The notes under the pieces: model-generated
Told to the model about the DNA's origin: nothing
Databases searched by the model: none
Seen by the model: the letters and a program-made list of their open reading frames with translations, nothing else
Position numbers and translations under genes: made by a program
Source of the DNA: an uncultured Chloroflexia bacterium
GTDB taxonomy: Bacteria; Chloroflexota; Limnocylindria; Limnocylindrales; CSP1-4
Reading direction: 5' to 3'
Length of the DNA: 64,000 nucleotides
NCBI GenBank assembly: GCA_963775225.1
Contig: CAVZHW010000005.1
Location: forward strand, 21,612-85,611
In this document: piece by piece, positions 1,302 to 7,634 of the stretch
Position numbering within the stretch: position 1 is the stretch's first letter
Layout: each line of letters begins with the position of its first letter

Positions 1302-1691
1302 TCATCCGACGAGCACCGTGGCCGCAGTCGCCACGAGAGTGCCGGGCGTGACGCAGCAGGTCACACTCGACTGAGCGCTGGCGATCGGCTTGCCGCCGGC
1401 CATCACGGTCGGGCTGCCGGACAGGACATGTCCCATCTGCGCGGTCGGCACCATGAACGGATCGGTGGCATGCAGGCCGACGTGTGGCGGGGTGTTGTAG
1501 CCCGATGCGCCCAGCACCGCCACCGGCTTGCCGCCGATCTGGACCGTGGGCTCCAGACCCTGCAGGAGAGGCGCCGAAAAGGGCATCGGCGGCCCTGGAG
1601 TTGGGGCGCCCAGTGCGGCCGGATTGGGGATCTGGTGAATGGCGCAGACACCAGTGATCTGGTCGCTCATTACCGCCGCCGGCGCAGCCAT
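1302..1691 (-). CDS. PAAR-like spike-tip protein
   Basis: 129 aa, Gly/Pro-rich small beta protein directly downstream of the VgrG-like gene, the usual position of PAAR-like tips. An alternative start (MSDQITG) lies at 1670. Confidence 0.65.
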   Translation of the reverse strand: MAAPAAVMSDQITGVCAIHQIPNPAALGAPTPGPPMPFSAPLLQGLEPTVQIGGKPVAVLGASGYNTPPHVGLHATDPFMVPTAQMGHVLSGSPTVMAGGKPIASAQSSVTCCVTPGTLVATAATVLVG

Positions 1692-1702: not shown

Positions 1703-3442
1703 CTAGTTCAGCTGGATCAGCGAACCGTCGATGTCGACGATGCCGCTGCTCTGGATCTTGACCCCGCCCTCGCCCTTGAGCGTCAGCTGCGCGCTTGACT
1801 CGAGCGACAGGTTCTGCTGCGACTTGATCTGGATGCCCTTTGTCGACTCGATGACGATTTGTCCATCCGCGTATACGTGGATCTCTGAGCCCGTTTCCTT
1901 GAGGGCGATGCGGAGCTTGTCGTCGCTGGTTATCAGCGCGATGCCGGACTTGCCGCTGTCGTCGAAGAGGACGATCCGATGGCCGCGGCGGGAAACGAAG
2001 CCGCGGCGCGTGACCTTGCCGTTATCGAAGAGTCCGTCGCCCAACCGCGGTTTGTCCACGCCGTTGTAGAGGCCGCTCAGCACGTAGGGCCTGCGCATGT
2101 CGCCGAACTCGAAGCAGACGAGCACCTCGTCGTGGACCTCGGGCAGGAAGACGGCGCCGCTGTCCGGCCCGGCGCCCAATTGGGCGACCCGCGCCCAGTC
2201 CGACTCGTACTCGTCCGACAGCCACGGAAACGAAAGCTTCACGCGGCCCAACTGCTCTGGGTCGTTGTTGTCGGTAACGATGCCGATGACAACGCCGTTG
2301 ATCGGCTGCGCGCCACCTCCCAGGCGAGTGCCTGAGCCGCCGACAGCGCCGACCGCCAGGCCGAGCAGCGATCGCTCCTGTCGGCCGCTGACGGTGAACT
2401 CTGTCCGGTAGCCGTCGTGATCGAAGACCTGGCGCACCGACGTCGGCGTGTACTTGCCCGAGAAGTCGTCGGCCACGACCGACACCGAAAACGGCACGCC
2501 CGGGCGCACATACGGGTTACCGCGTGCTACACCGACGGCCTCGGCAAACGCGCTGCCAATCTGTTCGGCGACCGCCTTGGCGGTCGCCTCGACGGCCGAT
2601 TGGTCCGACAGCGGACGGTCGACCGACACGAAGTCCGGGGCGTCGAACGTCGCCGCCAGCTGGCCCGGCTTGGCCGGCAGGTCCGCGCTGGCGGCAGTCG
2701 CCGGGGCTTGCGCCACGACCGTCTGCTTTTTCGCCGGGTCCCATCCGCGGACCTCGACGTTGCTGACCTGCTCGGATGAGGTGACGCGCGGACGAAATTC
2801 GATGAGCTCTTGGCCCATCACCAGCTGCAGCGGGTTGCTGGTCGAGAAGTCCCCTTCGCCCGGGCCGGCCTCGGCGTCGCGCGGCTTCGTGAACATGAAC
2901 TTGCCATCCTTGAACCCGACCTCATAGCCGATCTCCAGCGCGCGACCCTTCAGGAAGTCCCAATCCGACACGTTGGATTGGGACACGTGCTCGAACGTCG
3001 TCTGGGTTGCGTCGATCTGGCCGATCTCGACGCCAGCCCGCTGCGCCACCGTCCGCGCCAGGTCCGAATCGGTGACGTTGCGGTACGTGTGGGTACGCCG
3101 CCCGCGATGGAAGCGATGCGATGGGTCGTAGCCGCGCACGATGGCGTGTGAGCCAAGCTGGTCGTATTCGGCCTCGATCGTGGTTACCTCGGCGGTCAGG
3201 ATGGCCTGCGGCGATGTCTCGTCAGCCGCCGCCGCCTCGATGACGACCTTCGAGCCGATCTTGATGCGAGCGTCCTGCACAATCTGGCGGTCCTGATCGC
3301 GGAACGTGAGCGTGAACATGTCGGGCAGGTGCAGGTGCTGGTCGATGACCACCTGTTCCAGTACGCCATGGACCTCGTCACTGAGGGGCATTCCGTCGAC
3401 CTTGACCTGGGCCTGGACGCTGAAGCCGTTCTCGCCGCTCAC
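1703..3442 (-). CDS. VgrG / phage late-control-D plus gp5-like spike protein (Cis8/Afp8-like)
   Basis: 579 aa. N-terminal gpD-like region, OB-fold block VLVCFEFGDMRRPYVLSGLYNG, and a C-terminal beta-helix-like repeat region. 4-nt overlap with the upstream LysM gene. Confidence 0.9.
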   Translation of the reverse strand: MSGENGFSVQAQVKVDGMPLSDEVHGVLEQVVIDQHLHLPDMFTLTFRDQDRQIVQDARIKIGSKVVIEAAAADETSPQAILTAEVTTIEAEYDQLGSHAIVRGYDPSHRFHRGRRTHTYRNVTDSDLARTVAQRAGVEIGQIDATQTTFEHVSQSNVSDWDFLKGRALEIGYEVGFKDGKFMFTKPRDAEAGPGEGDFSTSNPLQLVMGQELIEFRPRVTSSEQVSNVEVRGWDPAKKQTVVAQAPATAASADLPAKPGQLAATFDAPDFVSVDRPLSDQSAVEATAKAVAEQIGSAFAEAVGVARGNPYVRPGVPFSVSVVADDFSGKYTPTSVRQVFDHDGYRTEFTVSGRQERSLLGLAVGAVGGSGTRLGGGAQPINGVVIGIVTDNNDPEQLGRVKLSFPWLSDEYESDWARVAQLGAGPDSGAVFLPEVHDEVLVCFEFGDMRRPYVLSGLYNGVDKPRLGDGLFDNGKVTRRGFVSRRGHRIVLFDDSGKSGIALITSDDKLRIALKETGSEIHVYADGQIVIESTKGIQIKSQQNLSLESSAQLTLKGEGGVKIQSSGIVDIDGSLIQLN

Positions 3443-4152
3443 GCCGCCTCCGCGAGGCGCCGTGCCTCACCGATCTCAGGCACCAGCAAAGTAGTGCCGG
3501 CCGGGATGCGCAGCGGATCGTCGATCTCGTTGTAAACGGCCAGCCCGCGCCAGAGAGTCGGATCGCCGTACTCGCCGTATGCGATGCTCGCCAGCGAGTC
3601 ACCCTCGACGAGCACGTGGCTGCGATAGCCCACGCGACTGCCCGAGGTCGGGTTCTGCTTCTTCGTCTGCTTGGGCACCTCTTCGAGGGTGATGTTGGCC
3701 GTGGCGCGAATGGGCATGCCGTTGTCGTCGAAGAGCGTGTACTTGGCCGTGACGGTCTTGAGGTAGCCCTGGAAATTGGCCAGCGCCGGATTGCTGCCCC
3801 AGTCGAATGCCAGGAGCGGCGGTCGGGGCTTCGGCTTGGCGAACGAGCTGGACGTCGGCGTGGTCCAATCGAGCAGCGTCGCGATGTCGTCGGCGATCGT
3901 GCCCTTGCCGGCCTCCCAATCGTCGAAGAAGATCTCGAGCTGGACCGTTTGCGGGTTCGTGCTCAGGTACTCGGGCGGAGGGGCGCTCTTCGCGTTCCTT
4001 GAGCCCTTCGACTTGCCGGGTTGCCACTGCGAGCCCTTGGTAATCGTGTATTCGCTCGGGTTGTAATAGAACTTCAGGCTGGTCCGCGTGGGCTGTCCGT
4101 CTGTCACCCGCAGGGTCGCCTGCGCCAGAGCACTGCTGCCACTACCTGCCAC
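3439..4152 (-). CDS. LysM-domain CIS protein (tube-initiator / gpX-like, Cis7/Afp7-like)
   Basis: 237 aa. The C-terminal GDSLASIAYGEYGDPTLWRGLAVYNEIDDPLRIPAGTTLLVPE is a LysM domain. The N-terminal half resembles the tube fold region of Afp7-type proteins. Confidence 0.85.
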   Translation of the reverse strand: MAGSGSSALAQATLRVTDGQPTRTSLKFYYNPSEYTITKGSQWQPGKSKGSRNAKSAPPPEYLSTNPQTVQLEIFFDDWEAGKGTIADDIATLLDWTTPTSSSFAKPKPRPPLLAFDWGSNPALANFQGYLKTVTAKYTLFDDNGMPIRATANITLEEVPKQTKKQNPTSGSRVGYRSHVLVEGDSLASIAYGEYGDPTLWRGLAVYNEIDDPLRIPAGTTLLVPEIGEARRLAEAA

Positions 4153-4161
4153 GTCGCCCCC

Positions 4162-4584
4162 CTACGAGAGAAAGCCGTTGTGAACGAGCTCGAGTGACTC
4201 GAACGCGGTGTCTTTGCCGTTCACGTCGAAGTTGGGCCCCGTCCACTTCGAGATCATCACGCCGTCCAGCGACCAGCTGCTGACCGTCAGCCCCTCCGCG
4301 TCGAGCGCAGTGATCTGCGCCGTATGACGTGTGCCGGGCTTTGCGACGGCGGACACCAGCGCCGCGAGCTTGCCCGAGTCCTGGTCGAGCGGCCGCGTCA
4401 GCTTTACCGTCTGGTACTTGCGCCGGCCGGGCAGCCGGTGGATGAAGCCGTTCTGGCCGCCCTCCTTGTATTCCTGGATTTCGTACTCGACGACCAGGCC
4501 CTCGACCTTGGTCCACTTGCCCAGCGTCGTATCGCCGTCGAGCGTGACCTGGAAGCGGAGTGTCAGCGCGTTCTCGGGCGACAT
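4162..4584 (-). CDS. Second tube-like protein (T4 gp19 / phage tail tube family, Cis5/Afp5-like)
   Basis: 140 aa. MSPENALTLRFQVTLDG...WTKVEGLVVEYEIQEYKEGG...KYQTVKLTRP matches the 'conserved phage tail region protein' family. Paralogous in style to the tube gene at 7179..7634. Confidence 0.85.
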   Translation of the reverse strand: MSPENALTLRFQVTLDGDTTLGKWTKVEGLVVEYEIQEYKEGGQNGFIHRLPGRRKYQTVKLTRPLDQDSGKLAALVSAVAKPGTRHTAQITALDAEGLTVSSWSLDGVMISKWTGPNFDVNGKDTAFESLELVHNGFLS

Positions 4585-4592
4585 CGCACGTC

Positions 4593-6569
4593 CTAATGCA
4601 GGTCAGTCAACAGGCCGGAACGCTCTCGCGCGACGAGCAGCTCATGTGCCAGCCTTGTGCGCAGCTTGGGGTAGAGGCGGTGCAGGAGCTCCTCGACCTC
4701 GCGGTCATCCAGGCGACCGCCCGTAGCGGTCGTGCCGGCTGGAGTCGTCGCGCTGGACGTGGCTGCGGGCGCCGAATCGGGCACGGCCTCGGCACGCTGA
4801 ACGGCCCGCCCGTCAGGCATGGCACGGCGAGAACTCGGCGCGGTGGCGCCTACCGGATTTCCGTGTGCCGGCTTCGTTGACTCGTCAGCTGCACTGCGCT
4901 GGAGATTTGGGCCCTCGGCCGCGCCGGCCGCAGCGGCTGCAGAGTCAGCTGGGCTGCCTGACGTTTCCCGTTGACTCGCGGTGGAGGTGGTTCGGCGCGA
5001 CAGGTAGGCTCGCTGAGCAGACTGCGTGGGCCGAGCGTCGGCACGCTCGGGCGACCTGGACGTGACGACGGCCTGGGCGAGTGGCGACAGCGGATCCGCC
5101 GCGGGAGCCGGCGATGAGGGTGCTTGCTCGTGCACGTGTGCTGCCTGGACTGTCGGTATCACCGGCAGGTCTGACTGAGCGACGCCCGTCATCTGGGACG
5201 CAGCCATGGATGAACTCGCGGCTCTCAGGCGTCCCTCGGCCCCGTTCCCGGCCACGGCCCCCGCCCCGGCCCAGTTGCGCAACAGCGGCCGATCGGAGAC
5301 GAGCGGCAAAGGCGGCACGGCGCGTGCGTCGGAAGCAGGCTTGGCCATGTGAGGTGCGATCGGGCGCTGCGGACTCGTGCGGGCCGCGCTGTCGCGTTGC
5401 AGGTGCGCCTCGCCTGCGCCCTGACTGGTTGCCACCTCGGCCGGCGCTGCCGGCTCCGCCTCACCCGTGCTCGACGCTCGGCCCGCGCCGCGGACGGCCG
5501 GTGGCGACGCTGCGTCGGTCATATCGGCCGCCTGGTCGTGTCCCATCGTCCGTGAGGGGTCCGGCGACGCTGAATGCGGAGTCACAGATGCCGGACTGTC
5601 GAGATGGCGCTGGACGCCGCGAGTCGCAGGCCCTGCTGGAACATCGGATGCCGGCGAGCGGCCGGATGGGCGGCTGGCGCCAGCGGGCCGCACCGGCTCC
5701 GTGCCGAGCCCGGGCGGCGGTGTATGCCGCCCCGGTCCATCGGCAATGGGCTCGCCCAGGCGTACTCGGCGAACGACGCCCGTTGTTCGCTGTGCGCTCA
5801 GCAAAGATGTGCTGGCTCGCGTCGAAGGCGTGCCCGGCGGCAGCGGGGTCGTCCGCTCCACCGCGCCGCGGCCCGGCCGTTGGTCACCGGCTGCAGGCGG
5901 GGCACTCGGCTGGTCGAACGGCGTCCGCTGCAGCGGCGCCAGCTGCTGGACGCGCGTCAGCGCTCCAGCCATGGGCTTAGGACGTACCAGCGGCAGCGCG
6001 GCTTTCGCTGAAGCTGTGGGATTGGATTCTGGCGTCGGCTGGATGGCCGGCCCAGCGGAGCTCGCGGCGGCGTGGCTGTGCGGCGAGGCCGAGGACGGCG
6101 ATGTCGTGGGCGGCCGAACGGGCGGCGGTGGCGTCTGCGGCGCCGGTTGGTCGAGGGGAGCTTGGTCGGGGTCCGGCGTCTGGTCGGTGTGAGAAGCAGC
6201 GCGCTGCAGCCAGCCATGCAGCCCGCCTGCTGCCCGCTTCTGCCGGTACTCGCCGATGGGTCCTGCCTGCGCCGGCGCGGGCTGGACCGTCGCCAGCCCG
6301 CTGACGAGGCCGTGCGGCGCCGTGGCCGAGCGCTCGTGGCCCAGGCGTTGGAGCATGGGGGCAGGTCGGTTGGCGCCGGCCAGATCGGCCTTGAACTCGC
6401 GCGGCGGTGCGAGCAGTGGCGAGTTGCTCATCGTCGGCTCGAGCGGCGGCAGTTGCCGCCACTCGGCGTGGCCGGGGGTGGCTCGCAGCGCGCCCCGGTC
6501 CGCCGCCGTCACGTCACCCGCGAGGCGTTGGACCGGCGTTTCGCGATGGAATGGCCACGCAAGGCGCAC
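4593..6569 (-). CDS. Pro/Ala/Ser-rich protein in the tape-measure position (putative tail length determinator)
   Basis: 658 aa with a GTG start. Mostly low-complexity P/A/S/T sequence with a structured C-terminus, DDREVEELLHRLYPKLRTRLAHELLVARERSGLLTDLH. Lies between the assembly ORFs and the second tube gene, as P2 gpT does. Contains eight [LV]QR triplets. Confidence 0.7.
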   Translation of the reverse strand: MRLAWPFHRETPVQRLAGDVTAADRGALRATPGHAEWRQLPPLEPTMSNSPLLAPPREFKADLAGANRPAPMLQRLGHERSATAPHGLVSGLATVQPAPAQAGPIGEYRQKRAAGGLHGWLQRAASHTDQTPDPDQAPLDQPAPQTPPPPVRPPTTSPSSASPHSHAAASSAGPAIQPTPESNPTASAKAALPLVRPKPMAGALTRVQQLAPLQRTPFDQPSAPPAAGDQRPGRGAVERTTPLPPGTPSTRASTSLLSAQRTTGVVRRVRLGEPIADGPGRHTPPPGLGTEPVRPAGASRPSGRSPASDVPAGPATRGVQRHLDSPASVTPHSASPDPSRTMGHDQAADMTDAASPPAVRGAGRASSTGEAEPAAPAEVATSQGAGEAHLQRDSAARTSPQRPIAPHMAKPASDARAVPPLPLVSDRPLLRNWAGAGAVAGNGAEGRLRAASSSMAASQMTGVAQSDLPVIPTVQAAHVHEQAPSSPAPAADPLSPLAQAVVTSRSPERADARPTQSAQRAYLSRRTTSTASQRETSGSPADSAAAAAGAAEGPNLQRSAADESTKPAHGNPVGATAPSSRRAMPDGRAVQRAEAVPDSAPAATSSATTPAGTTATGGRLDDREVEELLHRLYPKLRTRLAHELLVARERSGLLTDLH

Positions 6570-6575
6570 CCTGGC

Positions 6576-6734
6576 TTACTCCTCTTCATTCAGGCGTTGG
6601 TTGATGGCCGATATCTCGCGGACGAAGCGCTGCCGGTCGGCGTGCTCGAGGTTGAGGATCTCTTCCATCGGCCAGTGCAGGTGATAGGCGACGTACGCGA
6701 CCTCTTCGAAGAGCTGGTCAGTCGCGTACGTCAC
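6576..6734 (-). CDS. 52-aa conserved-looking small CIS protein (E'/T-like ORF; may be expressed alone or as a -1 frameshift extension)
   Basis: Not in the ORF track because it is under 60 aa. My translation: VTYATDQLFEEVAYVAYHLHWPMEEILNLEHADRQRFVREISAINQRLNEEE*. The GTG start overlaps the TGA stop of the 143-aa ORF (GTGA). The frame is -1 relative to the upstream ORF. Confidence 0.6.
   Translation of the reverse strand: MTYATDQLFEEVAYVAYHLHWPMEEILNLEHADRQRFVREISAINQRLNEEE
6690..6732 (-). promoter_or_regulatory. Perfect 12-bp stem-loop immediately downstream of the slippery heptamer
   Basis: gacgtacgcgac (6721..6732 on the minus strand) pairs perfectly with gtcgcgtacgtc (6690..6701). The 19-nt loop itself contains the palindrome ctcttcgaagag. 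The stem starts 4 nt after the heptamer and overlaps the GTG of the 52-aa ORF. Confidence 0.6.
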
Positions 6735-7162
6735 GATCCCCCCAGGCGATCACCTGCCAGATCAATCGCGAACTCGTGCTTGCAGCTCGGACAGGCGACC
6801 GTCGTTGAGGTTGTGCCCTCCTGGTTGATGCGCCGGTACAGGTCCTGCAGAAAGGCGAGATCGGAGGCGAACATGTTCTCGATCACCCCGGCGTGTACAT
6901 CGGTCAACGTGCCCAGGCGGGTGATGACGCGCGAGAGCAACAGTACGGTGAGGTAGGCCTCGTTCTCGCGGACACGCGGGTCACGCTGGGGAACGATCTC
7001 GTCCTTGGCCGTGGCCAGGCGCATCACGCCGTCGCGATGTACCCGTCCGGCGCCATCCACGTAGCCACGCGGCAGGACGAAGGCGAACTCTGTTCGGAGG
7101 CCCGTCTCGGCGCTGTCCGCGATGGACGGCGCCGGGTTCGGCAGGGCGGCCAGGGCAGTCAT
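6731..7162 (-). CDS. Tail assembly chaperone-like protein (P2 gpE / lambda gpG position)
   Basis: 143 aa between the tube gene and the tape-measure-position gene. No enzymatic motif; ends ...VACPSCKHEFAIDLAGDRLGGS. The function call rests on position only. Confidence 0.65.
   Translation of the reverse strand: MTALAALPNPAPSIADSAETGLRTEFAFVLPRGYVDGAGRVHRDGVMRLATAKDEIVPQRDPRVRENEAYLTVLLLSRVITRLGTLTDVHAGVIENMFASDLAFLQDLYRRINQEGTTSTTVACPSCKHEFAIDLAGDRLGGS
6737..6743 (-). promoter_or_regulatory. Candidate -1 slippery heptamer G_GGG_GGA
   Basis: Minus-strand reading is cgc ctG GGG GGA tcg tga. It fits X_XXY_YYZ in the zero frame of the 143-aa ORF, one sense codon (tcg) before its TGA stop. The downstream ORF is in the -1 frame. 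Confidence 0.45.
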
Positions 7163-7178: not shown

Positions 7179-7634
7179 CTAGACGCGCTCGATGCTCTCG
7201 CAGACGAGCGAGGCCTCTTCCATCAGCACTTCGTTGGCGCCTGCCTTGAGAGTGCCCGTCGAGATCTTCGAAATCCAGGCGTTGGTGAAGTTGTAGCGCG
7301 CGACCTCGGTTCCGTCGTAGCTCTTGAGGATGACCGAGCCGTGCTTGCGCGCGGTGTCGACCTTGCCCTGGAGCATTGCCTCGTGCCAGTCCCAGAGGGC
7401 CTTGGAGGAGTTCTTGGCGCGCTTGAGGGTCAGCGTCGGCGGCTTGTGTGCCCCCGGCGCCTTGTGGATGATCAGCTTTCCGTCGGAGGTGTTTTCCTTC
7501 AGCTCGATGACGTCGAGCTCGGAGGTAAGACCGCTGACCTCCGCGAACTGGGCGATCTCGACCGAGTCCACCTCGATCGCGAAGAGGTATGACGCGAGCG
7601 CGTCGGTCGGCAGATTGGGCAGGCCACCAGCCAT
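7179..7634 (-). CDS. CIS inner tube protein (T4 gp19 family, Cis1/Afp1-like)
   Basis: 151 aa. ...YLFAIEVDSVEIAQFAEVSGLTSELDVIELKENTSDGK...TLTLKRA... is typical of the phage tail tube protein family. Lies directly downstream of the sheath gene. Confidence 0.9.
   Translation of the reverse strand: MAGGLPNLPTDALASYLFAIEVDSVEIAQFAEVSGLTSELDVIELKENTSDGKLIIHKAPGAHKPPTLTLKRAKNSSKALWDWHEAMLQGKVDTARKHGSVILKSYDGTEVARYNFTNAWISKISTGTLKAGANEVLMEEASLVCESIERV

Follow-up and report, generated by a model that had tools for sequence, protein, structure and literature searches.

The question raised by the locus described here is how two overlapping genes of an injection system are expressed. The locus lies in a stretch of 64,000 nucleotides (hereafter the window) from an uncultured Chloroflexia bacterium (GenBank assembly GCA_963775225.1, contig CAVZHW010000005.1, positions 21,612 to 85,611), which has a G+C content of 68%. 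On its minus strand, open reading frame 1 (ORF1), encoding a tail-assembly-chaperone-like protein of 143 amino acids (aa), runs into ORF2, which encodes a DUF6760 domain of 52 aa. To judge from their gene content, the minus-strand neighbors of both ORFs are a contractile injection system (CIS). An initial annotation of the window proposed that the two ORFs are joined by a -1 programmed ribosomal frameshift, as known for the gene pairs E/E+E′ of phage P2 and G/GT of phage lambda. This proposal is supported by a slip site, a frame relation and a stem-loop that are conserved among relatives, by many loci in which DUF6760 has no start codon and by homology to E′ of P2, and the tail-assembly-chaperone genes of this CIS very probably contain a -1 programmed frameshift site at the junction.

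ORF1 ends with cgc ctG GGG GGA tcg TGA, in which the heptamer GGGGGGA (6743..6737) is phased as X_XXY_YYZ in the frame of ORF1. The GTG start codon of ORF2 overlaps the TGA of ORF1 (GTGA), and ORF2 is located in the -1 frame, which extends upstream as far as position 6749 (stop codon at 6752-6750). The spacer tcgt between heptamer and hairpin contains the first base of the ORF1 stop codon as well as the first two bases of the GTG. The predicted fusion junction reads ...DRLGG-I-VTYATDQLFEE... and should give the tryptic junction peptide LGGIVTYATDQLFEEVAYVAYHLHWPMEEILNLEHADR. All of these elements, namely the end of ORF1, the phasing of the heptamer, the -1 position of ORF2, the hairpin and the read-through into the fusion, were found in the sequence as first annotated.

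The following course of events, including its efficiency and its role in assembly, is what we infer from the sequence. Most ribosomes would stop at the TGA of ORF1 and release the 143-aa chaperone. In a minority of ribosomes, the 12-base-pair (bp) hairpin would cause a pause while the P site holds GGG and the A site GGA, each paired with tRNA-Gly, and these ribosomes would slip back by one base on the run of guanines into the -1 frame. This would yield a fusion of 195 aa, whose C-terminal 53 residues form the DUF6760 domain. If the precedents of lambda G/GT and P2 E/E+E′ apply, the N-terminal body shared by both products would hold the tube-lumen protein, for which the product of the downstream 658-aa gene is the candidate, and recruitment of tube subunits would fall to the trans-frame DUF6760 domain, neither form staying in the finished particle.

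The junction was compared in two sets of relatives. For the high-GC set one genome per species was scanned, which resulted in 80 loci (81 sequences with the window) from Chloroflexota, Streptomyces, Micromonospora, Amycolatopsis, Kribbella, Nocardia, Mycolicibacterium, other Actinomycetota, Dormibacterota and a Verrucomicrobiia bin. The divergent set was obtained by scanning viral contigs and metagenomes with a profile of the divergent clade and comprises 86 analysable loci of lower G+C content; 84 of these form the main divergent clade, to which the counts of heptamers and start codons given below refer. Relative to ORF1, DUF6760 has the -1 position in 166 of 167 sequences, comprising all 86 divergent ones and 80 of the 81 high-GC ones. 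The sole exception (L002) was found in a long-read metagenome-assembled genome (MAG) in which the tract is one base shorter. An in-frame fusion of ORF1 and DUF6760 was considered for this locus and rejected, as the shorter tract puts DUF6760 in the +1 frame.

The junction DNA of the high-GC set is nearly invariant (CGC CTG GGG GAA TCG TGA CGTACGCG). Its heptamer is G_GGG_GAA in 70 of the 80 loci, G_GGG_GGG in five, G_GGG_GGA in three (the window, L024 and L037) and G_GGA_AAA in one (L023), while one locus is rearranged. The heptamer of the window is a minority variant of the family consensus G_GGG_GAA. Among the 84 divergent loci GGGGGAA occurs 39 times, GGGGGGG 15 times, CCCGGGG 14 times, GGGGGGA eight times and GGGAAAA once; four of the remaining loci have G_GGG or G_GGA immediately 5′ of the stop codon and three lack a motif. 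At the equivalent place, 79 of 80 loci of the high-GC set and 81 of 84 of the main divergent clade carry a shift-prone motif. The G_GGG_GGA of the window is fully canonical with respect to X_XXY_YYZ, whereas GGGGGAA is not a textbook heptamer of this type. It is, however, the motif of about 1000 annotated frameshifts in tail assembly chaperones of actinophages, where the A-site tRNA re-pairs via G:U (PRFect paper, PMC10885494), and was likewise reported for corynephage phi16 (PMC5506516). Furthermore, four distant loci with an ORF1 identity of about 33% keep the layout sheath-tube-ORF1 together with a DUF6760-like -1 frame. Their slip motif is T_TTT_TTC or T_TTT_TTA, which is followed by a 9-bp hairpin in L173 and L174.

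The heptamer variants bear on two explanations without any recoding, both of which had been named in the initial annotation. A miscalled G6 tract could split a single 195-aa gene or join two separate ones, and indels in homopolymers are common, the tract of the long-read MAG L002 is one base shorter and 'fused' proteins are present in the database. However, GGGGGAA, GGGGGGA and GGGGGGG (G5AA, G6A, G7) are substitutions of equal length, and therefore a homopolymer miscall can be ruled out. The two-ORF layout is also found in finished isolate genomes (Amycolatopsis mediterranei, Kribbella, Streptomyces), and the contigs behind the 'fused' proteins are full of indels and change frame upstream of a slip site with canonical DNA. 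Alternatively, slipped-strand changes in the length of the G6 tract could toggle the fusion within a population, a mechanism of phase variation known for poly-G tracts of some bacteria. Against this stand the constant tract length over about 165 species-level lineages, the non-homopolymeric heptamers which serve the same function, the conserved downstream structure and the fact that G5-6 is short for a contingency locus. Phase variation is thus excluded by the same conservation and has next to no probability.

The database entries which appear as fusions of ORF1 and DUF6760 (P0008, P0013, P0027, P0029, P0033, and P0047) were rejected as natural fusions and are regarded as assembly artefacts. 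On the contigs of P0029 and P0027 the tube and sheath genes are frame-broken as well, the slip-site DNA is canonical and an indel of one nucleotide is located upstream. Frame-broken CIS genes were observed in long-read metagenome assemblies (loci L181, L182, and L002), and such false fusions could mislead surveys of domain architecture. In addition, the 48-aa DUF6760 protein of Mycolicibacterium wolinskyi shares a 90%-identity cluster with P0309 (704 aa) and P0312 (707 aa), which suggests that the cluster members of about 705 aa are gene calls running DUF6760 into the downstream large gene.

The second element of the putative signal is the stem-loop. In the window it consists of 12 perfect bp and a 19-nt loop, with a folding energy of -22.1 kcal/mol for the hairpin alone. 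A region of 91 nt around it folds at -42.8 kcal/mol, compared to -31.5 ± 3.3 kcal/mol for dinucleotide shuffles (z = -3.5). When the peptide was recoded synonymously 3000 times, 96% of the versions gave a less stable hairpin than the native sequence (-26.8 kcal/mol for the latter vs. -18.6 ± 4.3 kcal/mol). Constraint on the RNA level is visible in the entropy of third codon positions, which is 1.03 bits in the body of ORF1, drops to 0.15 bits in the slip-site block and returns to 1.15 bits in the rest of ORF2. Within the hairpin it amounts to 0.19 bits in the 5′ arm, 0.99 bits in the loop and 0.41 bits in the 3′ arm. A block of 26 nt around the slip site, spacer included, ranks first of 324 windows for conservation. 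The palindromic loop pointed out in the initial annotation (ctcttcgaagag) is present, but peculiar to the window, since the loop varies freely among relatives. A search of the junction against Rfam gave no family match.

In the clade of the window (75 sequences) 90% of the cells are paired and five of the 12 pairs have changed on both sides. None of 500 shuffles was as good, and pairing fell to 8-51% when the partner columns were slid. In the divergent clade this position is occupied by another stem-loop of 10 bp, a bulge and 5 bp, with -18 to -25 kcal/mol. Among its 66 distinct sequences 90.3% of the cells are paired and eight of the 15 pairs have changed on both sides (46 cells), again with none of 500 shuffles as good and with 27-53% pairing for slid partner columns. 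The core of this stem was independently recovered by RNAalifold. One of its pairs (28-41) occurs as G-C (43 sequences) or as C-G (17 sequences), a swap which couples a synonymous leucine change to a Gln/Glu change. A structure that is kept while its sequence is replaced is what is predicted for a frameshift stimulator. Comparison of orthologues, which had been suggested as a check of the proposal, thus revealed conservation of heptamer, frame and stem-loop in about 165 loci across phyla, with covariation in the stem.

The same protein products would result from transcriptional slippage, in which the polymerase adds or drops a G, so that some mRNAs carry the ORFs fused. The homopolymeric G5-7 at the site in most loci is in line with this, and dnaX in some bacteria uses transcriptional in place of ribosomal slippage. 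However, known cases require about 8-9 A or T, the G_GGA_AAA of L023 and L127 contains no long homopolymer, and a covarying stem-loop 2-4 nt downstream as well as the strict zero-frame phasing of the heptamer are ribosomal features. Slippage of the polymerase is therefore disfavoured and regarded as quite unlikely.

A further alternative to frameshifting is coupling by termination and reinitiation, which the initial annotation had also considered. Ribosomes terminating at the TGA would restart at the overlapping GTG and produce a free 52-aa DUF6760 protein, and the hairpin would only order ORF2 after ORF1. The window has a usable GTG within the GTGA overlap, GTG is found at this codon in 70 of the 80 high-GC relatives, a four-base overlap is the commonest junction of bacterial genes, and L149 and L038 combine an ATG start with a weakened frameshift signal. 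However, no ATG, GTG or TTG for DUF6760 was found in six of the 80 high-GC and 49 of the 84 divergent loci, the latter searched from the upstream stop codon to the second DUF6760 codon. Together, 55 of 164 loci lack a start codon, and therefore DUF6760 is not generally made by initiation or reinitiation; the family is independent of a start codon. In L026 the entire -1 frame is devoid of one. The start-less loci have GTA, CTA, ATA, CTG or GCG at the start position. In the divergent clade ORF1 mostly ends with TAA or TAG, and the codon at the position of the window GTG is GTA, CTA, ATA etc. The GTG of the window can be explained by its stop codon, as TGA forces this valine codon, whereas TAA leads to GTA.

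In addition, the distance of 3 nt between G-run and GTG is too small for a normal Shine-Dalgarno sequence. Reinitiation also leaves unexplained the invariant heptamer and its switch to T_TTT_TTC/A in distant relatives, as well as the homology of DUF6760 to a P2 segment which exists only as a trans-frame extension. As the conserved mechanism it is therefore rejected and has little chance of accounting for the junction, but it may serve as an extra route in the window.

The homology to P2 was found by profile comparison. ORF2 matches DUF6760 of Pfam (PF20546) with E = 1.7e-15 and 57.3 bits at a cut-off of 27, and the family was matched by all of 19 diverse trans-frame segments, that of Bacillus phage BCD7 included. 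A profile of these 19 segments was aligned by hhalign to residues 86-132 of P2 E+E′ with a probability of 91.4% and E = 9e-7. This range is the E′ extension from the frameshift junction onward. Furthermore, eight of the 19 segments touched the Pfam family Phage_P2_GpE. For ORF1, a match to phrog_508 'tail assembly chaperone' was obtained (E = 1.1e-5), which is shared by 21 of 25 diverse relatives (best E = 3.8e-10). The ORF1 product of the window matches no family of Pfam or NCBIfam and stays below the threshold of PF12322 (T4_baseplate), which the distant relatives L173, L174 and L176 exceed; distant relatives also showed weak matches to Phage_TAC_7 and Gp41_Mu. The founder of PF12322, gp26 of T4, is listed as hub assembly chaperone (PMC3004832). 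The link of the window ORF1 to PF12322 is thus an indirect one via their common family. An ORF1 profile searched against PDB sequences gave only chance matches to zinc ribbons, and an AlphaFold2 model of the fusion, with a mean predicted local distance difference test (pLDDT) of 43.5 and a predicted template modelling score (pTM) of 0.28, is too poor for fold searching.

Phage homologues were found via distant ORF1 relatives only; tblastn of the fusion and of one distant DUF6760 against 50,697 phage genomes gave no match. In Bacillus phage BCD7 (L179, JN712910, about 5700..5900) the 'hypothetical protein' BCD7_0090 beside the tube genes ends with CTG GGG GAG TAA, a sequence resembling DUF6760 (IIAFNYHWSEDCIL...) continues in the -1 frame, and the next gene is very large. 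By its layout, this resembles a chaperone frameshift that annotation has missed, here in a genuine myophage.

With respect to known systems, the locus resembles P2 in several features. The gene order sheath-tube-ORF1/ORF2-large gene equals FI-FII-E/E+E′-T, the slip occurs near the 3′ end of a short ORF, the extension comprises about 50 aa (about 57 in E′, 53 in DUF6760) and the T_TTT_TTC/A of the distant ORF1 relatives resembles the P2 heptamer. In contrast, ORF1 has 143 aa and gpE 91 aa, with bodies lacking detectable similarity, the heptamer is G-rich here and T_TTT_TTG in P2, the locus belongs to a chromosomal injection system instead of a phage, and the downstream protein is disordered, rich in alanine and proline and no recognisable tape measure. 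With the actinophages (SEA-PHAGES, phi16) it shares the consensus G_GGG_GAA, high-GC hosts and a downstream structure, but the proteins are not relatives detectable by BLAST, most of these phages are siphoviruses and the window itself carries G_GGG_GGA. The lambda pair G/GT likewise gives two products with a common N-terminus from genes just upstream of the tape-measure position, and its heptamer G_GGA_AAG starts with G_GG, similar to the G_GGA_AAA of L023 and L127. However, the T extension has about 140 aa and an unrelated sequence, and no requirement for a strong downstream structure is known for lambda, which sets it apart from the window. Finally, the phage homologues of the T4 gp26 family (PF12322) also have the tube gene on one side and a very large gene on the other, but are longer (about 210-290 aa), and the records of BCD7 and of Streptomyces phage LuckySocke carry no frameshift annotation.

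The 658-aa gene directly downstream occupies the position of the P2 tape measure. The initial annotation had placed the junction between tube and tape measure; the tube gene indeed adjoins upstream, but the 658-aa protein had no family match in searches of Pfam, NCBIfam and PHROG, and may be called a tape measure by position only, as an unproven candidate. It is rich in Ala, Pro, Ser and Arg (120 Ala, 91 Pro), has no hydrophobic segments, and appears structured only in a short helical C-terminus (...VEELLHRLYPKLRTRLAHELLVARERSG...), the rest being apparently disordered. Possibly it acts, in an unconventional manner, as a lumen protein or as a determinant of length. From all of this a wider reading can be drawn, which we offer tentatively as slightly less likely than not: a frameshift would also operate in 'hub assembly chaperones' of the T4 gp26 type in certain large myophages such as BCD7, DUF6760 would never be a free protein but would recruit the tube as the trans-frame part of a chaperone that has been overlooked, and its presence would point to the disordered Ala/Pro-rich downstream protein as the true length-determining, lumen-filling protein in systems for which the literature reports no typical tape measure.

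Several observations weigh against frameshifting at this junction. The GTG in the GTGA overlap could allow independent translation of the 52-aa product in the window. The spacer of 4 nt is shorter than the usual 5-9 nt, though typical of the family. Part of the hairpin structure follows from the peptide, because its arms code for the conserved residues T-Y-A and A-Y-V, and synonymous recodings still average -18.6 kcal/mol. BLAST with the proteins of the window itself gave no phage relatives, a profile comparison of ORF1 with P2 gpE detected no similarity, and the composition of the 658-aa protein is unlike that of a classical helical tape measure. Individual loci also deviate. In L149 the slippery motif is missing and the overlap is ATGA, with ATG as start codon, while in L038 (Planotetraspora silvatica), which has an ATG start as well, the T-Y-A codons of the 5′ arm are lost and the 3′ arm is decayed. 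In Streptomyces phage LuckySocke (L178, OR725497, 5650..5940) the DUF6760-like frame is +1/-2 relative to gene 90.

Further departures from the rule were observed in L062, L131, L146, and L156. These lineages, as well as L149 and L038, may have switched to ordinary translational coupling. In LuckySocke, gene 90 is the relative of ORF1, and the annotated gene 91 (51 aa) covers only the C-terminal part of the DUF6760-like sequence; this arrangement could be a different type of recoding or a mis-annotation.

In public annotations, including those of finished genomes, the pair appears as 'DUF6760 family protein' and 'hypothetical', 'secreted' or 'zinc-ribbon' protein. No paper on DUF6760 and none on a frameshift or chaperone in a CIS was found in the openly searchable literature, which agrees with the initial annotation, whose author knew of no such report. 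According to published descriptions, CIS of the Streptomyces type have no typical tape measure, and these genes have no assigned function (PMC10066040, PMC6899500, PMC10020575). The CIS papers place sco4251, a possible counterpart of ORF1, in the sheath operon, also with unknown function.

Chaperone frameshifts are classical in phages, and the CIS case was apparently unnoticed before. It is no conceptual surprise, because injection systems descend from phage tails, in which this frameshift is almost universal. With frameshifting as the probable mode of expression, a function and a way of expression can be proposed for DUF6760 and the preceding protein, both of which occur in thousands of genomes and are annotated separately. 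A phage-type chaperone pair would imply a chaperoned lumen protein and points to the adjacent 658-aa gene. For heterologous expression or engineering, recoding, codon-optimising or splitting the genes would destroy slip site and stem-loop, and the fusion would be lost. Gene callers and databases built on indel-prone assemblies mis-describe the locus. The finding is of use for the annotation, understanding and engineering of injection systems.

The features of the locus, including the neighboring genes of the injection system, are compiled in Table 1.

Table 1. Genes and predicted signals at the ORF1/ORF2 junction and in its surroundings (positions in the window).
Feature	Positions	Strand	Basis
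Sheath gene (Phage_sheath_1, Phage_sheath_1C)	7661..9301	-	Pfam
Tube gene, directly upstream of ORF1 (Phage_T4_gp19)	7179..7634	-	Pfam, E=2e-29
ORF1, 143 aa, tail-assembly-chaperone-like, short zero-frame product ending ...DRLGGS and stop	6731..7162	-	phrog_508 match
ORF2, 52 aa, DUF6760, GTG start	6576..6734	-	Pfam PF20546
Trans-frame segment predicted to be read after the slip (I-VTYATDQLFEEVAYVAYHLHWPMEEIL...), 53 aa and stop, includes ORF2	6576..6737	-	DUF6760 domain
Predicted frameshift fusion, 195 aa (ORF1 residues 1-142 and 53 trans-frame residues)	6576..7162	-	inference, constructed from sequence
Candidate slippery heptamer G_GGG_GGA, ORF1 codons ctG GGG GGA	6737..6743	-	sequence
Spacer tcgt (4 nt), heptamer to hairpin	6733..6736	-	sequence
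Putative stimulatory stem-loop	6690..6732	-	folding and comparison
Stem, 5′ arm (gacgtacgcgac)	6732..6721	-	sequence
Loop, 19 nt	6720..6702	-	sequence
Stem, 3′ arm (gtcgcgtacgtc)	6701..6690	-	sequence
Gene of 658-aa protein, directly downstream of ORF2	4593..6569	-	position of P2 tape measure
Second tube protein	4162..4584	-	library scan of window proteins
CIS_tube protein	3439..4152	-	library scan of window proteins
VgrG-like spike	1703..3442	-	library scan of window proteins
PAAR	1302..1691	-	library scan of window proteins

A second C6/G6 tract at 4157..4162, between the genes of the second tube protein and the CIS_tube protein, was considered as a further slip site and rejected. On the minus strand it reads TAG GGGGGG CGAC GTG and represents the Shine-Dalgarno sequence of the next gene.

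Finally, the slip site of the window is preceded, at a distance of a few bases, by a Shine-Dalgarno-like GGTGATC (6747..6754). Such an element is common to many loci, codes for Gly-Gly-Asp and varies at the third codon positions; it may be a stimulator of frameshifting from the upstream side. In the divergent loci L090, L094, L099, and L104 it reads GGA GGT GAC, i.e., GGAGGTGA, and lies about 9-16 nt before the heptamer.

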